Part shown: piece after piece, positions 2,857 to 57,803 of the stretch | How positions within the stretch are numbered: the stretch's first letter is position 1 | Layout of the letters: every line of letters starts with the position of its first letter | Assembly: GCF_934229725.1 (NCBI RefSeq) | Contig: NZ_CAKQDX010000010.1 | Length of the DNA: 64,000 nt | Direction: 5' to 3' (one strand) | Source of the DNA: an uncultured Streptococcus sp. | GTDB taxonomy: Bacteria > Bacillota > Bacilli > Lactobacillales > Streptococcaceae | The notes under the pieces: model-generated | Databases searched by the model: none | The model's input: only the letters and a program-made list of their open reading frames with translations | What the model was told of the DNA's origin: nothing | Position numbers and translations under genes: made by a program

Positions 2857-3836
2857 AACTCCCTCACTATGTTTTTGTTAGCTTCGGTTAACTAACATGA
2901 GTCCTAGATGCTGCTGTTGATCGAATGAAGGTCATACTGAACTCATCTTATAAACCTTCATTATGCTATCTATCTTAACACTCAAAAGCTTTCGTTTCAA
3001 GCGATTCCTTAATTTTTAAGCATTTTAAATAAATAAAAAATTCATGTCCTAAAATTGATGAAAATCTATTATCAGATTAAGCTTTTAAGCCTAGACAAAT
3101 GGTAAATTCTTTAAGCAATGCTCAGCAAACCAAAGATTTGTCGGCTAAAGTGCCAATAAAAGAGCTACTTTGCGCCAAACGTCTATCGGATACCTTCATA
3201 GTGTCCAAACACTTTCAAAGCAACTATAAAAAAATAGCCCTAAAAGAAAAAGCTAACCTTCTATTAATTAAATAAATGATTATAAAAAGATTAGTAACCT
3301 ATATCTCTAAAACCCTGTTTTAAAAAGTCTTAATAGATTTAATAAATACAACTCCTTCAGAAAACCTCATATAGTTTAAATTTTAAGTTTAGTTATAGTT
3401 ATCTTTATTAGCATTTCTTTATTCCATGAAAACAAAGGAAACTACTAAAGATGATGCTAAGGATCAACTCTCTCATATACTACTCATCCCATAACATTTG
3501 TATCTTATCAGCTCTAACGTGCTAAATACACCGACCTTAACTCCTCTATTACGGCAAACAAGTGTTAAAATTGGAGAAAACACTTGGTAAAACACTAAAA
3601 ATAGCCTAACTTTATAACCAAATGACCAAATCGGAGACTCACAAAAAGCTCATTTACTAAACTATTTTCTCATATGTAAACGCTTCACACACATCTCTAT
3701 CACATGTAAGAAAAACTTGCTATGTTTTAGTATTTTTTTAGCATAAACGCTAGATATTTCAAGGAAAATCCGTTACAATGAGATAAGGAAAGATAGGTAA
3801 TTAACAGCATCATTATTTCATATGAAAGGGAAATTC

Positions 3837-4538
3837 ATGGCTTATATTCAAATGAAGCATAGCTATAAACGCTATAAAACCGGTGATCTGGAAATTATCG
3901 CAAATAATGACGTAAGCTTTGAAATTGAAAAAGGGGAGCTTGTCGTCGTTCTCGGTGCCTCCGGTGCAGGGAAATCAACCGTTCTTAACATCTTAGGTGG
4001 TATGGACACCAATGACGAAGGCCGCGTCATTATTGATGGTAAGGATATCTCTGAATACTCAGCTAGGGAACTTACGACTTATCGTCGTGAGGACGTTGGT
4101 TTTGTATTCCAATTTTACAACTTAGTTTCAAACCTTACGGCCAGGGAGAACGTTGAGTTAGCATCTGAAATCGTTCCAAACGCCAAAGATGCCTCACAAA
4201 CACTTGTCGAAGTCGGTTTAGGGGACCGCTTGGACAACTTCCCATCACAACTATCTGGTGGGGAACAACAACGTGTCGCTATTGCACGTGCCGTTGCCAA
4301 AAATCCAAAGATTCTTCTTTGTGATGAACCGACGGGGGCTCTGGATTATCAAACAGGGAAACAAATCCTAACCCTCCTTCAAGACATGGCGCGCAAACAG
4401 GGAACAACTGTTATTATTGTTACCCACAATGCTTCTCTAGCTCCAATTGCTGATCGTGTGATCCAAATGCACGATGCCAAGATTAAGAGTGTGGAAACTA
4501 ATCCCAACCCACAAAAAATCGAGGACTTGGAGTACTAG
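3837..4538 (+). CDS. ABC transporter ATP-binding protein (MacB/FtsE-like, antimicrobial-peptide-exporter type)
   Basis: Walker [10 protein letters not shown], signature [14 protein letters not shown], Walker [16 protein letters not shown] at 3837 has RBS GAAAGGG 6 nt upstream (the track start at 3822 has none). Followed 15 nt later by the FtsX permease gene. Confidence 0.9.
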
Positions 4539-4552
4539 AAAGGAGCACCGTC

Positions 4553-7195
4553 ATGAAAAAAACAACTTATTGGAAAGATGTTTGGCGAACCTTTGTAGCT
4601 TCTAAAGGGCGTATGCTCTCTATTGCCTTGCTTATGGCACTCGGATCCTTTGCTTTGATTGGTCTTAAGGTCACTTCTCCTAATATGAAAACAACAGGAG
4701 AACACTTCTTCAAGGCCCATCAGACAGCTGACTTGAGCTTAATCAGTACTTACGGTATTAACAAAACCGATCAAGACCTTCTTAATACAGTCAAAAAGAA
4801 GAATGTTGACATTGAGTATGGTTATTTCAAAGATGCTGTTATCAAGGGCACAAATACGACATTTCGTATCTTCTCAAAACCTAAAAAAATCTCTACCTAT
4901 GACCTTGTTGAGGGGAAGCTTCCTAATAAGGATGGGGAGATTGCTCTTTCTTCAACCTATAAAGAAGAATACAGTGTAGGAGATAAGATTAATTTTTCTG
5001 AGCCAGTAGATAGCTCTGGGCAAAAACAGTTAAAGGAACAAACATATACCATTACTGGTTTTGTCAATTCCTCTGAACTCCTCTCCAAGAATCGTCTTGG
5101 TAATGCCAGTGCAGGTACCGGAAAACTAGACGGCTATGCCGTTGTGCCGAAGACAGATTTCAACGCTAATAACTACATGATTGCTCGAATCCGTTACCAG
5201 GATTTGGCAAATGTGAGTCCTTTTAGTAAGAAATATGCGGATAAAATTTCAGAAAGAAAAGCTGAACTCAAGGACCTCTTTAAAGACGAGCCTGAGAAAC
5301 GCTTAACTGAAATCAAGTCCCAAACTCAAGCTCAAATTACGCAAGGAAAACAAGAGCTTGAAGCAGCACGCACCCAGACTCAGCAGATGACAACAACCAA
5401 CGCTGCTGAGGCAGCAAGTGTAAAAGAGGCTACTACCAAGATTGAAGCTAAGCAAAAAGAACTCGAAGAAAGTCAAGCAATGCTGGACAATATGCCAGCC
5501 CCTAGCTACAAGTTCTACTCTCGTCGAGAAATTCCGGGTTCAGATGGGTATGTTGCTTACGAGAGTAACATCAACATCATCCATGATGTCAGCAACATCT
5601 TCCCTGTAGCCCTCTACTTTATGGCAGCCTTAGTTACCTTTGTAACCATGGGACGCTTTGTTGAAGAAGAACGAGGAAAAGCCGGTATCCTTAATGCACT
5701 GGGGTATAACAATTCACGTATTATCCACAAATTCGTCATTTATGGATTAATTACTAGTATTGCTGGTACAGCTGCAGGGGTTATTACAGGACATACTCTA
5801 CTTCCAGTACTCATTCACAACACTTATAAGAACGATTTGCAACTACCTGCTTTTGAGTTGCACTTCTACTTAGGGCTTACCCTAATCGCCTTTCTTTTAG
5901 GGCTCTTATCCGCTGTACTTCCTGCCTATGCGGTTGCTAAGAAAGAACTCTGGGAAAAACCTTCCCAACTGCTCCTTCCAAAGCCACCTCGTGCAGGAGC
6001 TAAGATTGTCCTAGAGCGCATTACACCTCTTTGGAGACGTCTTAGTTTCAAAGAAAAAGTTACCATGCGTAATATTTTCCGCTATAAACAACGGATGTTT
6101 ATGACCCTCTTTGGAGTCGCAGGCTCTATCGCTCTGCTCTTCGCAGGTTTAGGAATTCGTTCTTCCGTATCTAATCTTAACCAGCAACAGTTTGAAGACA
6201 TCATTCACTATGATATGATTGTCGCTAAACAACCGAATACATCAAGTGCCTTTGATGAGCAACTCACAAAGCTCCTTGATAGCAAAGACGTCAAAGAATA
6301 CTTGAATATTCATTTTGAAACCTTACAAAAAATTGCTGGTAACAATAAGGATACCCAAGAAATCTCGACGATTGTCTTTAACGACCATGATGAGAAAATC
6401 ATTAATAGTTACGTTAGCATGAGAGACCGAGCACATAACAAAACGCTTAAATTATCTAATGATGGAGCTATTATCTCTGAAAAAATGGCCAAACTCCTTA
6501 ACCTCAAGGTTGGCGATACCATTACTGTACAAAACAGTCAGGAAGAATCCGTCAAGATTAAAATTGCTGGTATCACAGAAATGTACATGGGACATTTCCT
6601 CTTTATGAATGCTAGCTACTATCAAAAAGCCTTTGGTACACCTTCGGTGAATAATGCCAATCTCGTCAGTCTGGCTGAACCTACCAAGCAAAATGTGGAA
6701 AACATGGCAGCTAAATTCATCAACTTGCCAAATGTTTACGGCGTTGTTCAAAACAACAACCTCAAGTTGCAAATCAGCACCATGGTCAATTCCTTAACGC
6801 AAGTTATTGGTATCTTGATTACCGTTTCCATTCTTCTTGCTGTGGTTGTCCTTTACAATCTGACCAACATCAATGTCTCTGAACGTATCCACGAGCTCTC
6901 AACCGTTAAGGTTCTTGGTTTCTACAATAATGAAGTATCCCTCTACATCTATCGTGAAACCATTTATCTATCTATTATCGGAATCTTCGTCGGATTTGGT
7001 CTTGGACAGGCACTTCACCAATATATGGTAAGCATTATCCCACCAGATCGTATCATGTTTGATCCATCTATTGGACTTGCTACCTACCTTTTACCAGCTG
7101 TTCTCATTGTCTTAATCCTTATTATCCTCGGCTTCGTTGTTAATAACCGCCTAGCCAAGCTTAATATGCTCGAAGCTCTAAGTTCAGTTGAATAA
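4553..7195 (+). CDS. ABC transporter permease with two FtsX domains and a long extracytoplasmic coiled-coil insert (MacB-like)
   Basis: 880 aa. Multiple TM helices at N- and C-terminal ends (FtsX-like blocks ending ...LEALSSVE). Central coiled coil rich in Q/E/K. Operon partner of the ATPase. Confidence 0.85.
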   Translation: MKKTTYWKDVWRTFVASKGRMLSIALLMALGSFALIGLKVTSPNMKTTGEHFFKAHQTADLSLISTYGINKTDQDLLNTVKKKNVDIEYGYFKDAVIKGTNTTFRIFSKPKKISTYDLVEGKLPNKDGEIALSSTYKEEYSVGDKINFSEPVDSSGQKQLKEQTYTITGFVNSSELLSKNRLGNASAGTGKLDGYAVVPKTDFNANNYMIARIRYQDLANVSPFSKKYADKISERKAELKDLFKDEPEKRLTEIKSQTQAQITQGKQELEAARTQTQQMTTTNAAEAASVKEATTKIEAKQKELEESQAMLDNMPAPSYKFYSRREIPGSDGYVAYESNINIIHDVSNIFPVALYFMAALVTFVTMGRFVEEERGKAGILNALGYNNSRIIHKFVIYGLITSIAGTAAGVITGHTLLPVLIHNTYKNDLQLPAFELHFYLGLTLIAFLLGLLSAVLPAYAVAKKELWEKPSQLLLPKPPRAGAKIVLERITPLWRRLSFKEKVTMRNIFRYKQRMFMTLFGVAGSIALLFAGLGIRSSVSNLNQQQFEDIIHYDMIVAKQPNTSSAFDEQLTKLLDSKDVKEYLNIHFETLQKIAGNNKDTQEISTIVFNDHDEKIINSYVSMRDRAHNKTLKLSNDGAIISEKMAKLLNLKVGDTITVQNSQEESVKIKIAGITEMYMGHFLFMNASYYQKAFGTPSVNNANLVSLAEPTKQNVENMAAKFINLPNVYGVVQNNNLKLQISTMVNSLTQVIGILITVSILLAVVVLYNLTNINVSERIHELSTVKVLGFYNNEVSLYIYRETIYLSIIGIFVGFGLGQALHQYMVSIIPPDRIMFDPSIGLATYLLPAVLIVLILIILGFVVNNRLAKLNMLEALSSVE

Positions 7196-49366: not shown

Positions 49367-50101
49367 TTAAGCACGTTTTTTGAAGCCCAAAAAGGCTGCT
49401 GCTGCAAGGAAGAAAGTCCCTGCAAGAGTCAAGAAGGTTGCTGATTCTTCACCGGTCTTAGGAAGGGTTACTTCTTTACCTTTAGCATCTTTACCTGTCA
49501 ATGTTCCATCAGTGTTAACCTTAAATCCTACCGCTTCAGGAGCAACAACACTTGTTGTACCATCAGTATTTGCAATAACAACTTGGCTATTTTGTGTAGA
49601 AACAATTGTTTGGCCAGCTGCTGTCACAACTGGAGCTGCTGGTGTAACAGTCACAACAGGTTGTCCATTGACATTCACTGCAGGAATCTCAGGTGTTTGA
49701 GGGTTCTCTTTTGTTTCAGTATTAGCCGATGGTGCTGCTGTATCAGGCTTGTCAGCTGGTTTTTCAGCAGGTTTATCTGACGACTCAGTTGTTGGAGCTG
49801 GTGTTGCTGGCGTTTCTGGAGTCGCTGGCGCTGTTGGCGTCGTAGGAGTCTCAGGCGTCGCTGGTACTTCAGGGACAGCAGGAGCAGTTGGCGTTGTTGC
49901 ACCTGTATTTGAATCATTACTGCGGGCCAAATCGCCATCACTTGGCGCTGTAGAAGAGCCTGTTGTTCCACGCTCTGCTGTCGGTTGCGTAATCAAAGCA
50001 TCATTTGTAGCAATGCCATCATCCGCATAAGAAGTTACTGGTACTAAAGCTCCTAGGGTAAGGAAAAGCAATCCACTATAGATAGATTTTTTAGAAGCCA
50101 T
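49367..50101 (-). CDS. LPXTG-anchored cell-wall surface protein, Pro/Thr-rich
   Basis: Signal peptide MASKKSIYSGLLFLTLGALVPVTSYA. PT-rich region. C-terminal LPKTG plus hydrophobic stretch plus KKRA sortase sorting signal. Confidence 0.85.
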   Translation of the reverse strand: MASKKSIYSGLLFLTLGALVPVTSYADDGIATNDALITQPTAERGTTGSSTAPSDGDLARSNDSNTGATTPTAPAVPEVPATPETPTTPTAPATPETPATPAPTTESSDKPAEKPADKPDTAAPSANTETKENPQTPEIPAVNVNGQPVVTVTPAAPVVTAAGQTIVSTQNSQVVIANTDGTTSVVAPEAVGFKVNTDGTLTGKDAKGKEVTLPKTGEESATFLTLAGTFFLAAAAFLGFKKRA

Positions 50102-53018: not shown

Positions 53019-53339
53019 ATGACTAAAGTAATAGGTATTGGATTAATAGGTACAGCAGTAACAGTTATCACTTACAGTATTCTCGGCTTCCCAAAATTGG
53101 AGGTGTCCCTTTGGCCACTCTTTCCAGTCGCTCTTTTTGCTTTCTTTGCAATAGAAAATCTTATCAAAAAAGATTATAAATCTAGCCTCATGAGTACTTT
53201 GATTGGTTTAATGATTGCTAATGCTATCTATGACGTGCTCCCTATATCAAATAACATCTTGATTGTTGCAAGAATTTTAACATGCCTTGGTCTAGGCTTT
53301 CTTTTTCCAAATCACGGTACAGATAAAGAGAGACATTAA
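53019..53339 (+). CDS. Small membrane protein (3-4 TM), hypothetical
   Basis: 106 aa, hydrophobic throughout. RBS ACGAGGTAG. Followed by a strong terminator. Confidence 0.55.
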   Translation: MTKVIGIGLIGTAVTVITYSILGFPKLEVSLWPLFPVALFAFFAIENLIKKDYKSSLMSTLIGLMIANAIYDVLPISNNILIVARILTCLGLGFLFPNHGTDKERH

Positions 53340-53388
53340 AAAAACGAGAAATCCGTTTATGTAAGAACAGATTTCTCGTTTTTTTCCA
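53336..53388. terminator. Bidirectional rho-independent terminator
   Basis: AAACGAGAAATC-(loop)-GATTTCTCGTTT 12-bp stem, flanked by an A-run and a T-run. Confidence 0.85.
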
Positions 53389-53426
53389 CTTATAGTCTTA
53401 CTATTAACTTAACTATTAGCATTTCT

Positions 53427-55583
53427 CTATTTTGAACGTCTGTGACGACCTTTGTAAGCTAAACTTGTCAAACCAAGGCCTACAAAAATCATACCTAAGA
53501 TACCAACCTTAGCGTTTGTATCTCCTGTATTTGGTAAGTTATGACCTACCAATTTCCCACCAGTAGCTGGAGTCATACCCTCATCATGAGATTGTGTAGA
53601 CGAAATCATAGCTGAGTCCATAGAATGATCAGCTTTTGAAGCAAGTGGACTAGATACAAATGCCCATCTTTGAGCCGATGACATTTCCTTATAAGATTTT
53701 TGACTTAGTTTATCAAGCGTTACGGATGAAGCTGGATTGACTGAAGTTGATGGAATAACAGCTGGTTTTGTCACTTCACTTGTTGCTGGTGTCGTGCTAA
53801 CTGCAGGTGTTTCGCTAGTAGCTGGAGTTGTGCTAACCGCAGGTGCTTCACTTGTAGCAGGCGTTGTGCTAACCGCAGGCGCTTCACTTGTAGCAGGCGT
53901 TGTGCTAACCGCAGGTGCTTCACTTGTAGCAGGCGTTGTGCTAACCGCAGGTGCTTCACTTGTAGCAGGCGTTGTGCTAACTGCAGGCGCTTCACTTGTG
54001 GCAGGCGTTGTGCTGACTGCAGGTGCTTCACTTGTAGTAGGCGTTGTGCTGACTGCAGGTGCTTCACTTGTAGCTGGTGTTGTGCTTACTGCAGGTGCTT
54101 CACTTGTAGCAGGCGTTGTGCTGACTGCAGGTGCTTCACTTGTAGCAGGCGTTGTGCTGACCGCTGGCGCTTCGCTCGTTGCTGGTGTTGTGCTTACTGC
54201 AGGTGCTTCACTTGTCGCCGGTGTTGTGCTGGTTTCAGGTGTAGATGTTGTATCGGTAACTTTAGGGGTACCATCTCCGTTATGAGTATGATAGTCATAC
54301 TGCCAAAATTCATAAAGCGTTTTACCAGCTTTTACTCTGTCATAGGTAACTTCGTAAAAGGATGGTGTACCGATAATGGTTGGAAAGGATGCGGCACCTT
54401 TACCGCCAAATTTTAAATATTCCGTCTCACCAGGCTCTATCGTATATTCTACAGAACGTGAATCCTCACCAGTCAAATGATAAATAACAGTATAGGTTAA
54501 CGGACCTTCAGACTGAGATGAAGGTTTTGCAGATGGAGTTAAACTATCTTTAAATGCTGTCTCACTATTGTTCTTTTTATAAAGGAACATGGCCATTGGT
54601 GTTCCAGTATTATCAGTAACAAAATATGAGGAAGATAACTTCAACGTATTATCAGGTATATCAGAACCAGTTTCGTATTTATTAGCGCTATCTAAAGTAT
54701 AGCCTGGTATAGTTTTAGCGCTTACTGTTACCTCCTTATCCAAAGGTACAACAACAGTGTCATAAGGTGCGATATCAATTACTGCCGGAACACCGTATTT
54801 ACTATTTTTCTCAAAAACACCATAACGAACATGATAAGAAATAGAATCTCCATGATGCCATGAAGGTCTATTTATTGGGTTAACGATAATGTTCCCTTCT
54901 ACAGAAGGTTTATTTTTATAGTAGGTATATGTTATAGGATTGTCATCAAAATTAGGATGGTTTAAAAGTGGACTATCATAAGGGATGACATCTCCAGCTT
55001 TAAAACTCTTTCCATCATCTGACGTAATTGTATAGTAAGAATACCTATAATCATCTCTCTCAGGAAGAACGAAACGCCCATCTTCATTAGGGCCAAAGAA
55101 GCCATCTCCCGATTGTATGTCACCACTGTCTGTATGCTCTACATAACGGAAATAAAATGACTTATCTTCTTCAGTCTCATCCTTGTCTCTTGAATTCTCA
55201 CTTGACGTTGTACTTGTCGGCGAAACTATACCAGTTGGAGTTACTCCAAGACCTTCATGTTCTGAATATAAAGCACTTGTTTCTGGTGCTTCGCTATTTT
55301 CTGAAGTCGAGACTACTGCTGGTGCCTCACTCGTCGCTGGTGTTGTGCTGACTACTGGTGCTTCACTTGTCTCAGGACTCGTGCTCATAGCTGGAGTTGT
55401 ACTAACGTTTTCGCTAGTAGCAGGCGTTGTGCTTGGAGCTTCACTCGTTGTTGGCACTGTACTAGCAATTTCATCAGCATACACTTTTGTAGATGATTGA
55501 CAGAATTGGGACTGTGCTACAGTCGCAACTGTAACAGCTGCAACCAAAACAATACCATATTTAGACAACTTATTAATAGACAA
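53427..55583 (-). CDS. LPXTG-anchored cell-wall surface protein with ~12 tandem 12-aa repeats (TSEAPAVSTTPA)
   Basis: TTG start at 55583 with RBS GGAGGA. Signal peptide. N-terminal unique ~300-aa domain. Repeat block. C-terminal LPNTG plus hydrophobic stretch plus RHRRSK. Confidence 0.85.
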   Translation of the reverse strand: MSINKLSKYGIVLVAAVTVATVAQSQFCQSSTKVYADEIASTVPTTSEAPSTTPATSENVSTTPAMSTSPETSEAPVVSTTPATSEAPAVVSTSENSEAPETSALYSEHEGLGVTPTGIVSPTSTTSSENSRDKDETEEDKSFYFRYVEHTDSGDIQSGDGFFGPNEDGRFVLPERDDYRYSYYTITSDDGKSFKAGDVIPYDSPLLNHPNFDDNPITYTYYKNKPSVEGNIIVNPINRPSWHHGDSISYHVRYGVFEKNSKYGVPAVIDIAPYDTVVVPLDKEVTVSAKTIPGYTLDSANKYETGSDIPDNTLKLSSSYFVTDNTGTPMAMFLYKKNNSETAFKDSLTPSAKPSSQSEGPLTYTVIYHLTGEDSRSVEYTIEPGETEYLKFGGKGAASFPTIIGTPSFYEVTYDRVKAGKTLYEFWQYDYHTHNGDGTPKVTDTTSTPETSTTPATSEAPAVSTTPATSEAPAVSTTPATSEAPAVSTTPATSEAPAVSTTPATSEAPAVSTTPTTSEAPAVSTTPATSEAPAVSTTPATSEAPAVSTTPATSEAPAVSTTPATSEAPAVSTTPATSEAPAVSTTPATSETPAVSTTPATSEVTKPAVIPSTSVNPASSVTLDKLSQKSYKEMSSAQRWAFVSSPLASKADHSMDSAMISSTQSHDEGMTPATGGKLVGHNLPNTGDTNAKVGILGMIFVGLGLTSLAYKGRHRRSK
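53779..54245. repeat. Tandem 36-bp repeats (about 12-13 near-identical copies) within the LPXTG protein gene
   Basis: Unit GCAGGTGCTTCACTTGTAGCAGGCGTTGTGCTAACC repeated head-to-tail, with silent and near-silent variants. In-frame, encoding TSEAPAVSTTPA. Confidence 0.9.
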
Positions 55584-55643
55584 AATAAATCCTCCATCGG
55601 AACATTCTCATAAAATTTTTAGAAAAATGAATTTTTCACTGAA

Positions 55644-55698
55644 ATTATACCCCCCCCCCAAAAAAAGTCAATATTTTTTCTAAAAAATTGACTTTTTT
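55644..55698 (-). promoter_or_regulatory. Terminator hairpin of the antiporter gene fused to the promoter of the LPXTG gene; G10 homopolymer in the -35/-10 spacer
   Basis: Minus strand: AAAAAAGTCAAT-(14 nt)-ATTGACTTTTTT perfect 12-bp hairpin. Then TTGACT(55671..55666)-T6G10(55665..55650)-TATAAT(55649..55644). Spacer is 16 nt. Confidence 0.65.
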
Positions 55699-55736
55699 GT
55701 TCATTTAACTACAAGCTGTATACTCTAAACGCCTAC

Positions 55737-57803
55737 TTAAACTCGCCCTCGGGCTAGATTAATCATATCATAGGTCAAGGTATTGCTGGTCTCTTTGAGA
55801 GAGTAATCCTCTAAAGTATTGACCTCCTTACGAAGCTGTTTGGCGTAGCGGCTAGAGATAAGTTCAGCCTGCTCATACTCATTGATAACCTTACGTTCCA
55901 AATAGTAGCCTCGCAACATCTCGTCGATATTGTCAGGACTAAGGTGGGTGATAACCCGTTCAACAAAGGCACCTGACTGGATAATCTCAGCTTCTTGTAA
56001 ACGGCCACGCTTTAGATAAGACAAGAGTTCAGAGTGATAGACACCTTCCAGATTGCTCAGCGCTTCCAGTACTTGCTCAGTGTTTGTCAAATAAAGCTCC
56101 GCCATGTGATCACGATTTTCCTCTGTTAAACGAGGAGCTCGTAACGTCTCCTCCTTGCCAAGATGAAATTTAAAGGTAAAGGCAAGGTGTAGGAGCCTAC
56201 GTAGGCCTCGTACAAAGACAACGAAGGCATAGGAGAGGCTGGAGACGAAACCACGGTTAATACGACGCTCCAAGCCCTTGATATAACGCTGATAGAGGTT
56301 GTATTCGAGTTCTGAAAGTTGCCCCTTCTTGTAGGCATACTCTAACCCTTCACTCTCAATTTCCATAATCATGACACGGATATTGGCCAACTCTTCTTTG
56401 ACATCATTGGACTCTTGTTCCAAGATGAGGTTTTCCAGACGTTGATTATAATTGTCAATGGTAGCGTAAACAGCACCCTGATGCTTAGACTGCTTCAGGT
56501 CCTTCCCAAGCTCTCCAACGACATCATTCAAAATAGCAATCTGCATATAATGGTTGGTTGTGTGGGCTGACCCCGTCGCCAATTTTGGTAGGACTAAAAT
56601 GCCTGTTAAAAAGCTTAAGAGGGTGACACCTGCCACTGTAAAGAGGAGAAGGCTATGTTCTAAAGTCGTCATATTGGCAAGAGGAAGCAAGAGAATCGTC
56701 GCAATGGACACTGTTCCTTTAACCCCAGAAAAGGTCAGAAGAGTGGCACTCTTCCAAATTCTTTTTAGGGGTCTTTTGTTTTTCCAAGCTCTTTGGGCAA
56801 ATACCGCACTAATCATGACAAATCGAATGGCAAACATGGTCGCTGTCAAAAGCACGATTGCTAGCAGCAACCAGAGATTATCGTAGGTGCTACTTTGCAG
56901 AACGGGCATGGCCAATGTTGGTAATTCCGTCCCCAAAAAGAAGAAGACCATACCATTTAGCATGAAGGTAATGGTTCCCCAAATGGTATGCGAAATACTA
57001 TCCAATTTGGCATCAAAAACCGTAATTTTTTTGAAACGGCTGGCTAGAGAAATACCAGCCACTACTACGGCAATAATGCCCGAAACATGAATCTCCTCCG
57101 CAACAAAGTAAGAGGCAATAGGGAGCACAAGTTCTAGTAGGAGGGCCCCTGTGACATCTGCAGCATCCATATTATCCAGGATTGTCAAGAAAAGCCGATT
57201 AAGGAGGGCCGTGATTAGGCCAACCAGAAAGCCACCCATAACGGAAAGGAACAAATTCCAACTAGCATCAAGGAGCGAAAAGGCTCCCGTCGTCAAGGCA
57301 GTCACCGCTACTTGAAAAGCGACCAGACCTGAAGCATCATTCAAAAGCCCCTCACCCTGCAAAATATAACCAATCCACTTTGGAAAACTGAAGCGTTTGG
57401 CAATAGCTGAATAGGCCACAAAATCAGTCGGTCCAAGGGATGCTCCGATAGCTAGACAGGCAGAGAGAGGCACCGATACAGGCAAGATGGACTTAGCCAG
57501 ATAACCAATTCCCAATGTCGATACGAAGATGACTGGAAAAATCAGAAATAGAATCAGTTTCCAGTTACGTAGTATGCTGGTAATGTCACTCTCTTCCCCC
57601 TCTCGGAAAAGCAAGGGAGCGATGATAAAAGCTAGAAAGAGTTCTGTTTCAAGCTCAAAAACACGACCTTTGAAAAGTAAACCAATGCCCACTCCAAAAA
57701 TAATTTGAATTAAGGGCAGAGAAAGCCGTGGAAAGATACGGTTGATAACGTTCGATAAGATCAAGCTAAAAAGAAGAACCAGTAAAGCCGATGATAGATG
57801 CAT
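55737..57803 (-). CDS. Na+/H+ antiporter (CPA1/NhaP-type) with C-terminal cytoplasmic regulatory domain
   Basis: 688 aa. About 12 TM helices in the N-terminal 400 aa. Long soluble C-terminal domain. Confidence 0.8.
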   Translation of the reverse strand: MHLSSALLVLLFSLILSNVINRIFPRLSLPLIQIIFGVGIGLLFKGRVFELETELFLAFIIAPLLFREGEESDITSILRNWKLILFLIFPVIFVSTLGIGYLAKSILPVSVPLSACLAIGASLGPTDFVAYSAIAKRFSFPKWIGYILQGEGLLNDASGLVAFQVAVTALTTGAFSLLDASWNLFLSVMGGFLVGLITALLNRLFLTILDNMDAADVTGALLLELVLPIASYFVAEEIHVSGIIAVVVAGISLASRFKKITVFDAKLDSISHTIWGTITFMLNGMVFFFLGTELPTLAMPVLQSSTYDNLWLLLAIVLLTATMFAIRFVMISAVFAQRAWKNKRPLKRIWKSATLLTFSGVKGTVSIATILLLPLANMTTLEHSLLLFTVAGVTLLSFLTGILVLPKLATGSAHTTNHYMQIAILNDVVGELGKDLKQSKHQGAVYATIDNYNQRLENLILEQESNDVKEELANIRVMIMEIESEGLEYAYKKGQLSELEYNLYQRYIKGLERRINRGFVSSLSYAFVVFVRGLRRLLHLAFTFKFHLGKEETLRAPRLTEENRDHMAELYLTNTEQVLEALSNLEGVYHSELLSYLKRGRLQEAEIIQSGAFVERVITHLSPDNIDEMLRGYYLERKVINEYEQAELISSRYAKQLRKEVNTLEDYSLKETSNTLTYDMINLARGRV

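Follow-up and report, generated by a model that had tools for sequence, protein, structure and literature searches.

A poly-G tract in the promoter spacer of an accessory adhesin gene as a candidate expression dial in a salivarius-group Streptococcus

Introduction

In this article, I discuss a short intergenic region within a 64-kb stretch of DNA, which was analyzed as a whole and is called the window throughout, where the gene for a wall-anchored surface protein lies on the minus strand behind a promoter with a run of ten G's in its spacer. The upstream neighbor, also on the minus strand (55737-57803), encodes a Na+/H+ antiporter of 688 aa (Pfam PF00999 at 6.9e-42) and belongs to the conserved chromosomal flank of what turns out to be an accessory cassette: the antiporter is 99% identical in the nearest species-representative genome, that of S. 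raffinosi VTCC 12812, and 91-92% identical in S. salivarius and S. vestibularis. At the 3' end of this gene, the minus strand carries an AT-rich hairpin with a T run (55698-55661; AAAAAAGTCAAT-loop-ATTGACTTTTTT), which folds at -11.5 kcal/mol (z = -3.8) with two G-C pairs only, and whose stem is kept in five allele types, including one compensatory exchange between a UA and a GC pair. A terminator scan that needs at least three G-C pairs made no terminator call for this hairpin; a run of seven T's follows, and the hairpin is probably a weak intrinsic terminator of the antiporter gene.

The downstream gene (53427-55583, minus strand, TTG start) encodes a protein of 718 aa that an earlier sequence-only reading of this DNA had described as LPXTG-anchored, and this description holds: the protein has a signal peptide, an LPNTG motif (53537-53523), a hydrophobic segment and a basic tail, ends in LPNTGDTNAKVGILGMIFVGLGLTSLAYKGRHRRSK, and scores 18.7 bits with TIGR01167 (cut-off 15.9), which places it among the sortase-anchored LPXTG proteins. 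The same reading had counted about 12 in-frame repeats of 36 bp, and Tandem Repeats Finder gives 12.7 copies at 53774-54230 on the minus strand (89% matches, no indels; units TTPATSEAPAVS). Orthologues are many in human-associated metagenomes, at 83-95% identity, and all keep the LPXTG motif while carrying from about 1 to about 21 repeat units, counts that are approximate because short-read assemblies can collapse such repeats; an exact-protein look-up found no match to the window's own protein on record. A Pfam search with the whole 718-aa protein returned no family at E<=0.01, and no MucBP domain was recognized by sequence. The central region is probably made of tandem MucBP-like beta-grasp modules, the confidence of its structural model being modest (pLDDT 61), and the gene product is probably a MucBP-like adhesin with predicted mucus or glycan binding. 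A search for Alp/R28/alpha-C or BAC homology returned as its sole hit a match to NCBIfam NF038253 below the cut-off; an identity as the IgA-binding protein BAC was rejected, since the match covers low-complexity repeats only and its 32.8 bits fall far short of the cut-off of 1700.

The LPXTG gene ends in a strong intrinsic terminator of its own (53383-53338, minus strand, -21.3 kcal/mol), which marks the right end of the cassette, and past it the sequence rejoins that of cassette-free genomes (TTTTTAATGTCTC). In the latter, the antiporter gene is followed by a strong terminator (-21 kcal/mol) and then by a convergent gene for a membrane protein of 106 aa. A scan based on the antiporter found S. 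salivarius, S. vestibularis and other representatives to be without the cassette, which is why the adhesin had turned up no relative when the species-representative genomes were scanned with peptide patterns. Taken together, the hairpin, the promoter, the adhesin gene and its terminator make up an accessory cassette of about 2.4 kb, from about 55715 to 53338, that the representative genomes lack.

Promoter anatomy

On the minus strand, the order of elements in the window is ATATTGAC TTTTTTT GGGGGGGGGG TATAAT TTCAGTG. The -35 hexamer TTGACT (55671-55666), which is identical in 48 promoter sequences of the same architecture (the window's included), is contained in the 3' arm of the hairpin at 55698-55661, ATTGACTTTTTT, as the sequence-only reading had proposed. 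The last base of this hexamer is the first T of the T7 run (55666-55660), which serves the hairpin as its U-tract and also makes up the 5' part of the spacer, and the 3' part of the spacer is the G10 homopolymer (55659-55650), the candidate slippage tract, beside which T7 is a second slippage-prone homopolymer. The -10 hexamer TATAAT (55649-55644), for which relatives have either TATAAT or TATAGT, comes without a TG extension, with G's at -13 to -15. The spacer therefore measures 16 nt (T6+G10), and the earlier placement of G10 between the hexamers of TTGACT-(16)-TATAAT is confirmed at 55671-55644 (TTGACT-T6G10-TATAAT), with one correction, namely that ATTGAC is followed by seven T's and not by six. 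Transcription would start near 55637, about 7 nt past the -10 hexamer, and yield a predicted 5' leader (55640-55584, minus strand) with the ribosome-binding site GGAGG at 55595-55591; TTGACT-16-TATAAT sits 60 nt upstream of the TTG start codon of the adhesin gene, itself behind this GGAGG.

How much of this could be chance? In a consensus promoter scan, the site scores 11/12 and is the top promoter-like site between 53000 and 58200; in the entire window, four sites reach at least 11/12, against 3.2 +/- 1.9 in shuffled sequences, so that the hexamer match alone does not go beyond chance; what speaks for a promoter is where the site lies and that orthologous promoters of the same architecture conserve both hexamers. 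The G10 tract is another matter. As C10 on the plus strand, it is the only G/C run of at least 6 in the 64-kb window, where composition would lead one to expect about 8 of them; for runs of at least 10, the expected number is 0.017. In about 389 kb of salivarius-group DNA, all G/C runs of at least 8 fall at this one site, and the tract is therefore far beyond chance. A homopolymer of about 8 or more bases between the -35 and -10 hexamers is also what characterizes simple-sequence-repeat contingency loci of the PorA/Opc type, and such a homopolymer is found here.

The leader adds little to this picture. A promoter search of the window's own leader found no second promoter of at least 9/12, a scan of viral contigs found no conserved leader there, and Rfam gave no family match in the intergenic region or the leader apart from one chance-level hit, on which ground a riboswitch or a known leader RNA was rejected. 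The TGATAATAT motif in alleles of the L011 type was considered as a second promoter and rejected, as its distance from the start codon is only 18 nt and a transcript begun there would lose the ribosome-binding site.

Promoter alleles in related strains

Besides the window, 50 orthologous promoter loci were collected from exact-protein look-ups and from one DNA-pattern scan of metagenome contigs, the latter yielding 17-nt alleles only, and all tract lengths were taken from consensus assemblies. In 44 of the 50, the tract is interrupted (TTTTG/A-T6-7-(A)-G4-6) and the spacer is always 17 nt long, in six distinct sequences: TTTTGTTTTTTTGGGGG (20 loci), TTTTGTTTTTTGGGGGG (6 loci), TTTTGTTTTTTTAGGGG (7 loci) and TTTTATTTTTTTAGGGG (1 locus) in front of TATAAT, and TTTTGTTTTTTTGGGGT (9 loci) and TTTTGTTTTTTGGGGGT (1 locus) in front of TATAGT. 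Three lineages have an uninterrupted tract, and not one of them is at 17 nt: the spacer is T6G10 (run T7G10, 16 nt, with TATAAT) in L030 and the window, T9G9 (run T10G9, 18 nt, with TATAGT) in L044, which comes from ERZ27295718, and T7G8 (run T8G8, 15 nt, with TATAGT) in L067 and L068, which come from two different sequencing runs, ERR11439768 and ERR11438074. Between L044 and L067, both homopolymers differ (T10 versus T8 and G9 versus G8). The comparison of tract lengths across related genomes, which the sequence-only reading had put forward as a check, thus reveals a polymorphic tract with 15-, 16- and 18-nt spacers in three lineages. Spacers are off 17 nt in 3/3 pure lineages and in 0/6 of the interrupted spacer sequences (Fisher p=0.012), from which it follows that pure tracts are the ones that change in length, and since the 44 interrupted promoters are invariant in length, most strains hold a fixed 17-nt version.

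Consensus lengths of homopolymers deserve some suspicion, and one may suppose that the true spacer is 17 nt everywhere and that 15, 16 and 18 nt are miscalls of assembly or sequencing. The long-tract loci do all come from metagenome or run-level assemblies, in which homopolymers of 8-10 can be miscalled, such tracts being the hardest contexts on every platform, and in one related scaffold, L012, the leader is broken by an N gap some 27 nt past the -10 hexamer. I nevertheless regard an artifact as very improbable. The Logan assembly of run ERR7745561 (the source of L030) agrees with the window base for base over 6.6 kb (100% identity over 6618 bases, T7G10 included), and the two may share one sample; T8G8 is present in both L067 and L068, from different runs; the tracts are interior to long contigs and not at contig ends; and miscalls would not remove an interrupting G or turn five T's into G's. 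Pure and interrupted alleles differ in composition as well as in length. The poly-G artifact of two-color chemistry was considered separately and dismissed, with the tract inside long contigs, G10 in a second assembly and G8 in two runs.

The interrupted alleles also speak to whether the promoter is real. Although the flanks are 4-5% apart and the spacer bases vary, the hexamers have stayed the same and so has their distance of 17 nt, and this is the best evidence for a working promoter: six different 17-nt spacers in 44 loci with conserved hexamers point to selection on the spacing and to a genuine promoter. Two strains depart from this pattern: L066 has an extended -10 (TGTGATAAT) and no G tract, its promoter having been replaced, and in L024 an IS200-type element (Pfam PF01797, 3e-24) abuts GGGGGTATAAT and replaces the -35 hexamer. 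The insertion and the replacement suggest recurrent selection on adhesin expression, and together with possible read-through they make it too strong to say, as the sequence-only reading did, that the hairpin leaves no room for any other promoter architecture.

Since both of these strains do without TTGACT-17-TATAAT and yet have an intact gene, they also count toward the view that TTGACT/TATAAT is not the promoter that matters, the gene being transcribed mainly by polymerases that start at the antiporter gene and pass a leaky hairpin, or else from a promoter that depends on a regulator, with the G tract of little effect. An 11/12 match arises about three times per 64 kb by chance, and the hairpin, with its 2 G-C pairs and -11.5 kcal/mol against the -21 kcal/mol terminator of cassette-free genomes, is weak enough for read-through from the antiporter gene to be possible. 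What read-through alone does not predict is that the hexamers and an exact 17-nt spacing have been retained in 44 loci through G/A and T/G substitutions in the spacer; in addition, the leader holds no alternative promoter of at least 9/12, and the conservation of hairpin and T run, with a compensatory pair, is consistent with a working terminator. On this evidence, I consider this view improbable.

The least improbable of the alternatives is mutational drift, according to which the pure tracts are by-products of junction substitutions and indels under relaxed selection, and the promoters that carry them are weakened and decaying rather than set to different states of a dial. Relaxed constraint would also place the three pure lineages off 17 nt and the interrupted alleles at 17 nt; the flanks of the three long-tract lineages differ by 4-5% (about 95-96% identity), so that their length differences could have accumulated slowly, and slow accumulation would suffice; the gene is an accessory one that none of the group's species-representative genomes contains; and the promoter is disrupted or replaced in other strains. 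Decay, however, should strike the open reading frame as well, and the coding sequence is whole in all the alleles, the 2.1-kb frame of each long-tract strain still encoding signal peptide, LPXTG motif and repeats, which indicates that these genes are not decaying pseudogenes. The window has both hexamers in perfect form, and L044 and L067 have them nearly so. Pure tracts are also found with two kinds of flank, ATATTGAC...TATAATTTCAGTG and GAACTTGAC...TATAGTGTCAATGG, and must therefore have arisen at least twice or moved by recombination. Finally, a G10 run is intrinsically unstable, so that a certain amount of switching could hardly be avoided, with or without selection for it. Drift therefore seems to me unlikely, without being far-fetched.

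Discussion

With these alternatives weighed, the reading toward which I lean, with some reserve, is that of a slippage-driven, graded expression dial at a SigA-type adhesin promoter in a salivarius-group Streptococcus (nearest named species S. raffinosi), and, judged by its sequence, the poly-G tract is a credible candidate for a dial of a familiar kind. Under this proposal, a housekeeping-sigma (SigA-type) promoter would drive the accessory gene for the wall-anchored adhesin, with a composite T(n)G(m) tract determining the distance between -35 and -10; in the window strain, this tract would have lost its interruption. Slipped-strand mispairing during replication, in G10 and less often in T7, would add or remove single bases, shifting this distance among 15, 16, 17 and 18 nt and moving adhesin transcription up or down in heritable and reversible steps that would be graded and not strictly ON/OFF, and unequal recombination among the 36-bp coding repeats would separately alter the length of the protein stalk. 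Streptococci have mismatch repair, and slippage rates are therefore expected to lie below those of Neisseria or Campylobacter. I infer that the TTGACT/TATAAT promoter is active, that slippage is frequent enough to matter in a streptococcus with mismatch repair and that a single base alters expression appreciably. The effect of one base may nevertheless be small, since a promoter with 11/12 hexamers may lose little activity when its spacer measures 16 instead of 17 nt, and read-through from the antiporter gene could mask changes at the promoter. Given that the preferred spacer across bacteria is 17 bp, within a range of 15-19 bp (PMC12641261), expression would be expected to be highest at 17 nt, somewhat lower at the window's 16 nt and low at 15 nt.

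The two layers of variability that the sequence-only reading had proposed, one in expression and one in length, both exist at the population level, with spacers of 15, 16 and 18 nt on the one hand and about 1 to about 21 coding repeats on the other. Its phase-variation hypothesis fares less evenly: the architecture and the length differences between strains support it, whereas it does not describe the locus at large, given that 44 of the 50 promoters are interrupted, with G runs of 4-6 and an invariant 17 nt, so that switching, if there is any, is confined to a minority of alleles and does not characterize the locus as such. Of the two forms of switching that it had named, ON/OFF or graded, the former is unlikely, since a 16-nt spacer between hexamers that score 11/12 should still fire and since the steps at PorA are 2-fold and 13-fold (PMC3639595); a graded effect is more likely.

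How might a long pure tract come about in the first place? Among loci with identical proteins, substitutions at the T/G junction are seen at constant length, between T7G5 and T6G6 in the P0009 group and between T7G4 and T6G5 in the P0011 group. A T-to-G change at the junction of the two homopolymers would lengthen the G run by one, and repeated changes of this kind, together with the loss of the interrupting G, would produce exactly the T6G10 of the window. Both of these steps, the junction T-to-G change and the loss of the interruption, are represented among the sampled alleles. One may go further and propose that switchability is itself polymorphic, that most promoters are "locked" at 17 nt, where one interrupting G or A, together with the shortness of the G run, would hold the spacer, and that at least two lineages have independently been "unlocked" to a pure T(n)G(m) tract drifting between 15 and 18 nt. 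I regard this extension as less likely than not. If it is true, a human commensal streptococcus has only recently acquired a dial of two tracts by which a mucus-binding adhesin is regulated, and its relatives form a natural series in which the birth of a contingency locus can be observed.

The allele series, in which locked 17-nt promoters stand beside pure tracts (15, 16 and 18 nt), a promoter disrupted by an IS element and one that was replaced, would provide a ready system for studying the origin of contingency loci and the stabilizing effect of interruptions. Locked and unlocked alleles contrast, an independent IS insertion and a promoter replacement have struck the same site, and the locus is for these reasons a good candidate for experiments. 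Should the switching prove true, the promoter would be among the very few promoter-spacer homopolymer switches described in Gram-positive bacteria, and a commensal would be varying the display of a probable mucus-binding adhesin and, with it, its exposure to secretory antibody; searches of the literature accessible to this analysis found no report of a poly-G promoter switch in streptococci, including the commensal salivarius group. Should there be no switching, the window simply shows an accessory gene whose promoter is weakened in this particular strain.

Comparison with known systems

The protein itself, if MucBP-like, would have its closest known counterparts in MucBP-domain adhesins of lactic acid bacteria such as YwfG, Pediococcus PEPE_0118, Listeria lmo0835 and Lactobacillus Mub, from which it differs in having no Pfam MucBP match. 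As for the regulation, the closest mechanistic parallel is found in Neisseria meningitidis, where the promoters of the surface-protein genes porA (poly-G) and opc (poly-C) likewise have a G/C homopolymer of about 9-13 bases between -35 and -10. At porA, slippage by one base alters the spacing and grades expression, with 11 G's giving full, 10 G's 2-fold lower and 9 G's 13-fold lower expression (PMC3639595), and the G10 tract discussed here falls in the same range of tract lengths. The differences are equally instructive: Neisseria is a Gram-negative pathogen with many such loci, whereas here the host is a Gram-positive commensal whose 64 kb hold no other G/C run of at least 6; the spacer, unlike those of porA and opc, combines two homopolymers, T(n)G(m), of which the T part is also the U-tract of an upstream terminator; and the genes are not homologous, with switching here having the standing of a candidate only.

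Commensals and Gram-positive bacteria offer further points of reference. In Bifidobacterium breve, a human gut commensal, replication slippage in a G tract of a sortase-dependent pilus was demonstrated by maximum-depth sequencing (PMC9187656); that tract lies within the coding sequence and switches the pilus ON or OFF by frameshift, whereas the present one lies in a promoter spacer. Stochastic, repeat-driven heterogeneity of an LPXTG-type surface appendage is known from the Pil1 pilus of Streptococcus gallolyticus, a commensal or opportunistic species, and operates through GCAGA repeats in a leader peptide that is coupled to a transcription attenuator, and not through a spacer homopolymer (PMC3894217).

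The R28 locus of S. pyogenes M28 comes nearest within the genus. There, how much transcript is made of an LPXTG protein depends, in three steps, on whether an intergenic tract has 9T, 10T or 11T, and the protein varies in size with 1-17 tandem coding repeats (PMC7098570). The poly-T tract lies between the divergent genes Spy1336/R28 and Spy1337 and, together with the AraC-type regulator Spy1337, alters the spacing of direct repeats and not that of -35 and -10; R28 is also a member of the Alp family with repeats of 79 aa, and the protein discussed here has no Alp domains, so that the likeness is functional and not one of homology. It is a likeness all the same, for the R28 locus is streptococcal and combines the same two layers as proposed here, a homopolymer and a set of coding repeats, which makes it the closest resemblance within the streptococci.

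Distribution of the cassette

The accessory cassette measures about 2.4 kb (window 53338-55715) and comprises the adhesin gene with its promoter and the two terminators, as seen by comparison with the species-representative genomes of Streptococcus salivarius, S. vestibularis and related MAGs (L050-L059), in which the cassette is not present and a single strong terminator lies between the Na+/H+ antiporter gene and the gene for the 106-aa membrane protein. The nearest named species, represented by S. raffinosi VTCC 12812 (NZ_JASUZV010000004.1), provides a third arrangement 3' of the antiporter gene (L049:5064-5191), where a terminator, AGAAGCC...GGCTTCT, is followed by TTGTCAAGTATAAT... and the contig ends 127 nt beyond the gene; this sequence is unlike cassette-positive and cassette-negative loci alike.

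Variation in the promoter and leader

Two loci carry larger promoter rearrangements. In one strain (L024, ENA ERZ27264788), an IS200-family element stands where the adhesin promoter would have its hairpin, -35 and T run; the transposase gene (Pfam Y1_Tnp, 3e-24) and its hairpin-rich end occupy positions 1-445 at a contig end and directly adjoin GGGGGTATAAT, and the adhesin is otherwise identical to the orthologue P0009. The second is an orthologue with 89-93% identity from a Hadza gut metagenome (L066:1330-1500 and 3536-4974, ENA ERZ4560506), where the G tract is absent and the promoter reads TTGACT, then 28 nt, then the extended -10 TGTGATAAT; the genes 3' of this adhesin encode products of 114, 99 and 278 aa, and not the 106-aa membrane protein and ABC ATPase.

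Smaller differences fall exactly at the T/G junction of the spacer, where T and G substitute for one another between L021 and L022/L028 and between L016 and L011 (identical adhesins). The spacer length is the same within each junction pair (T7G5/T6G6 and T7G4/T6G5), and the substitution was found in two different backgrounds. Either the junction mutates recurrently, or sequencing errs systematically at the boundaries of homopolymers.

Assemblers can have trouble around this region, which is rich in both AT and homopolymers. One metagenome scaffold (L012) has a run of Ns in the 5' leader, approximately 27 nt 3' of the -10 and just upstream of the gene start at 3001. The gene call for the orthologue P0013 (L067:1501 / L068:134) begins at an ATG 4 nt 3' of the -10 (TATAGTGTCAATG), and the resulting N-terminal extension is spurious; the conserved GGAGG-TTG start lies further downstream, within the called gene.

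Other reading frames in the window

Two long ORFs in the 36-bp repeat array, of 182 aa (53737-54285, plus strand) and 98 aa (53771-54067, minus strand), are antisense or out of frame and were rejected as genes, being by-products of the repeat periodicity. A second protein with a Gram-positive anchor domain (Pfam PF00746; match precomputed on the identical Logan contig L039), small at 244 aa (49367-50101, minus strand), is encoded 3.3 kb from the adhesin locus. The minus strand holds 38 of the 42 window ORFs of at least 200 aa, at least two of the four on the plus strand overlap longer minus-strand ORFs, and across the whole window the plus strand contains more C than G (14257 against 11633); from this it follows that the window lies on one replichore with its genes strongly co-oriented.
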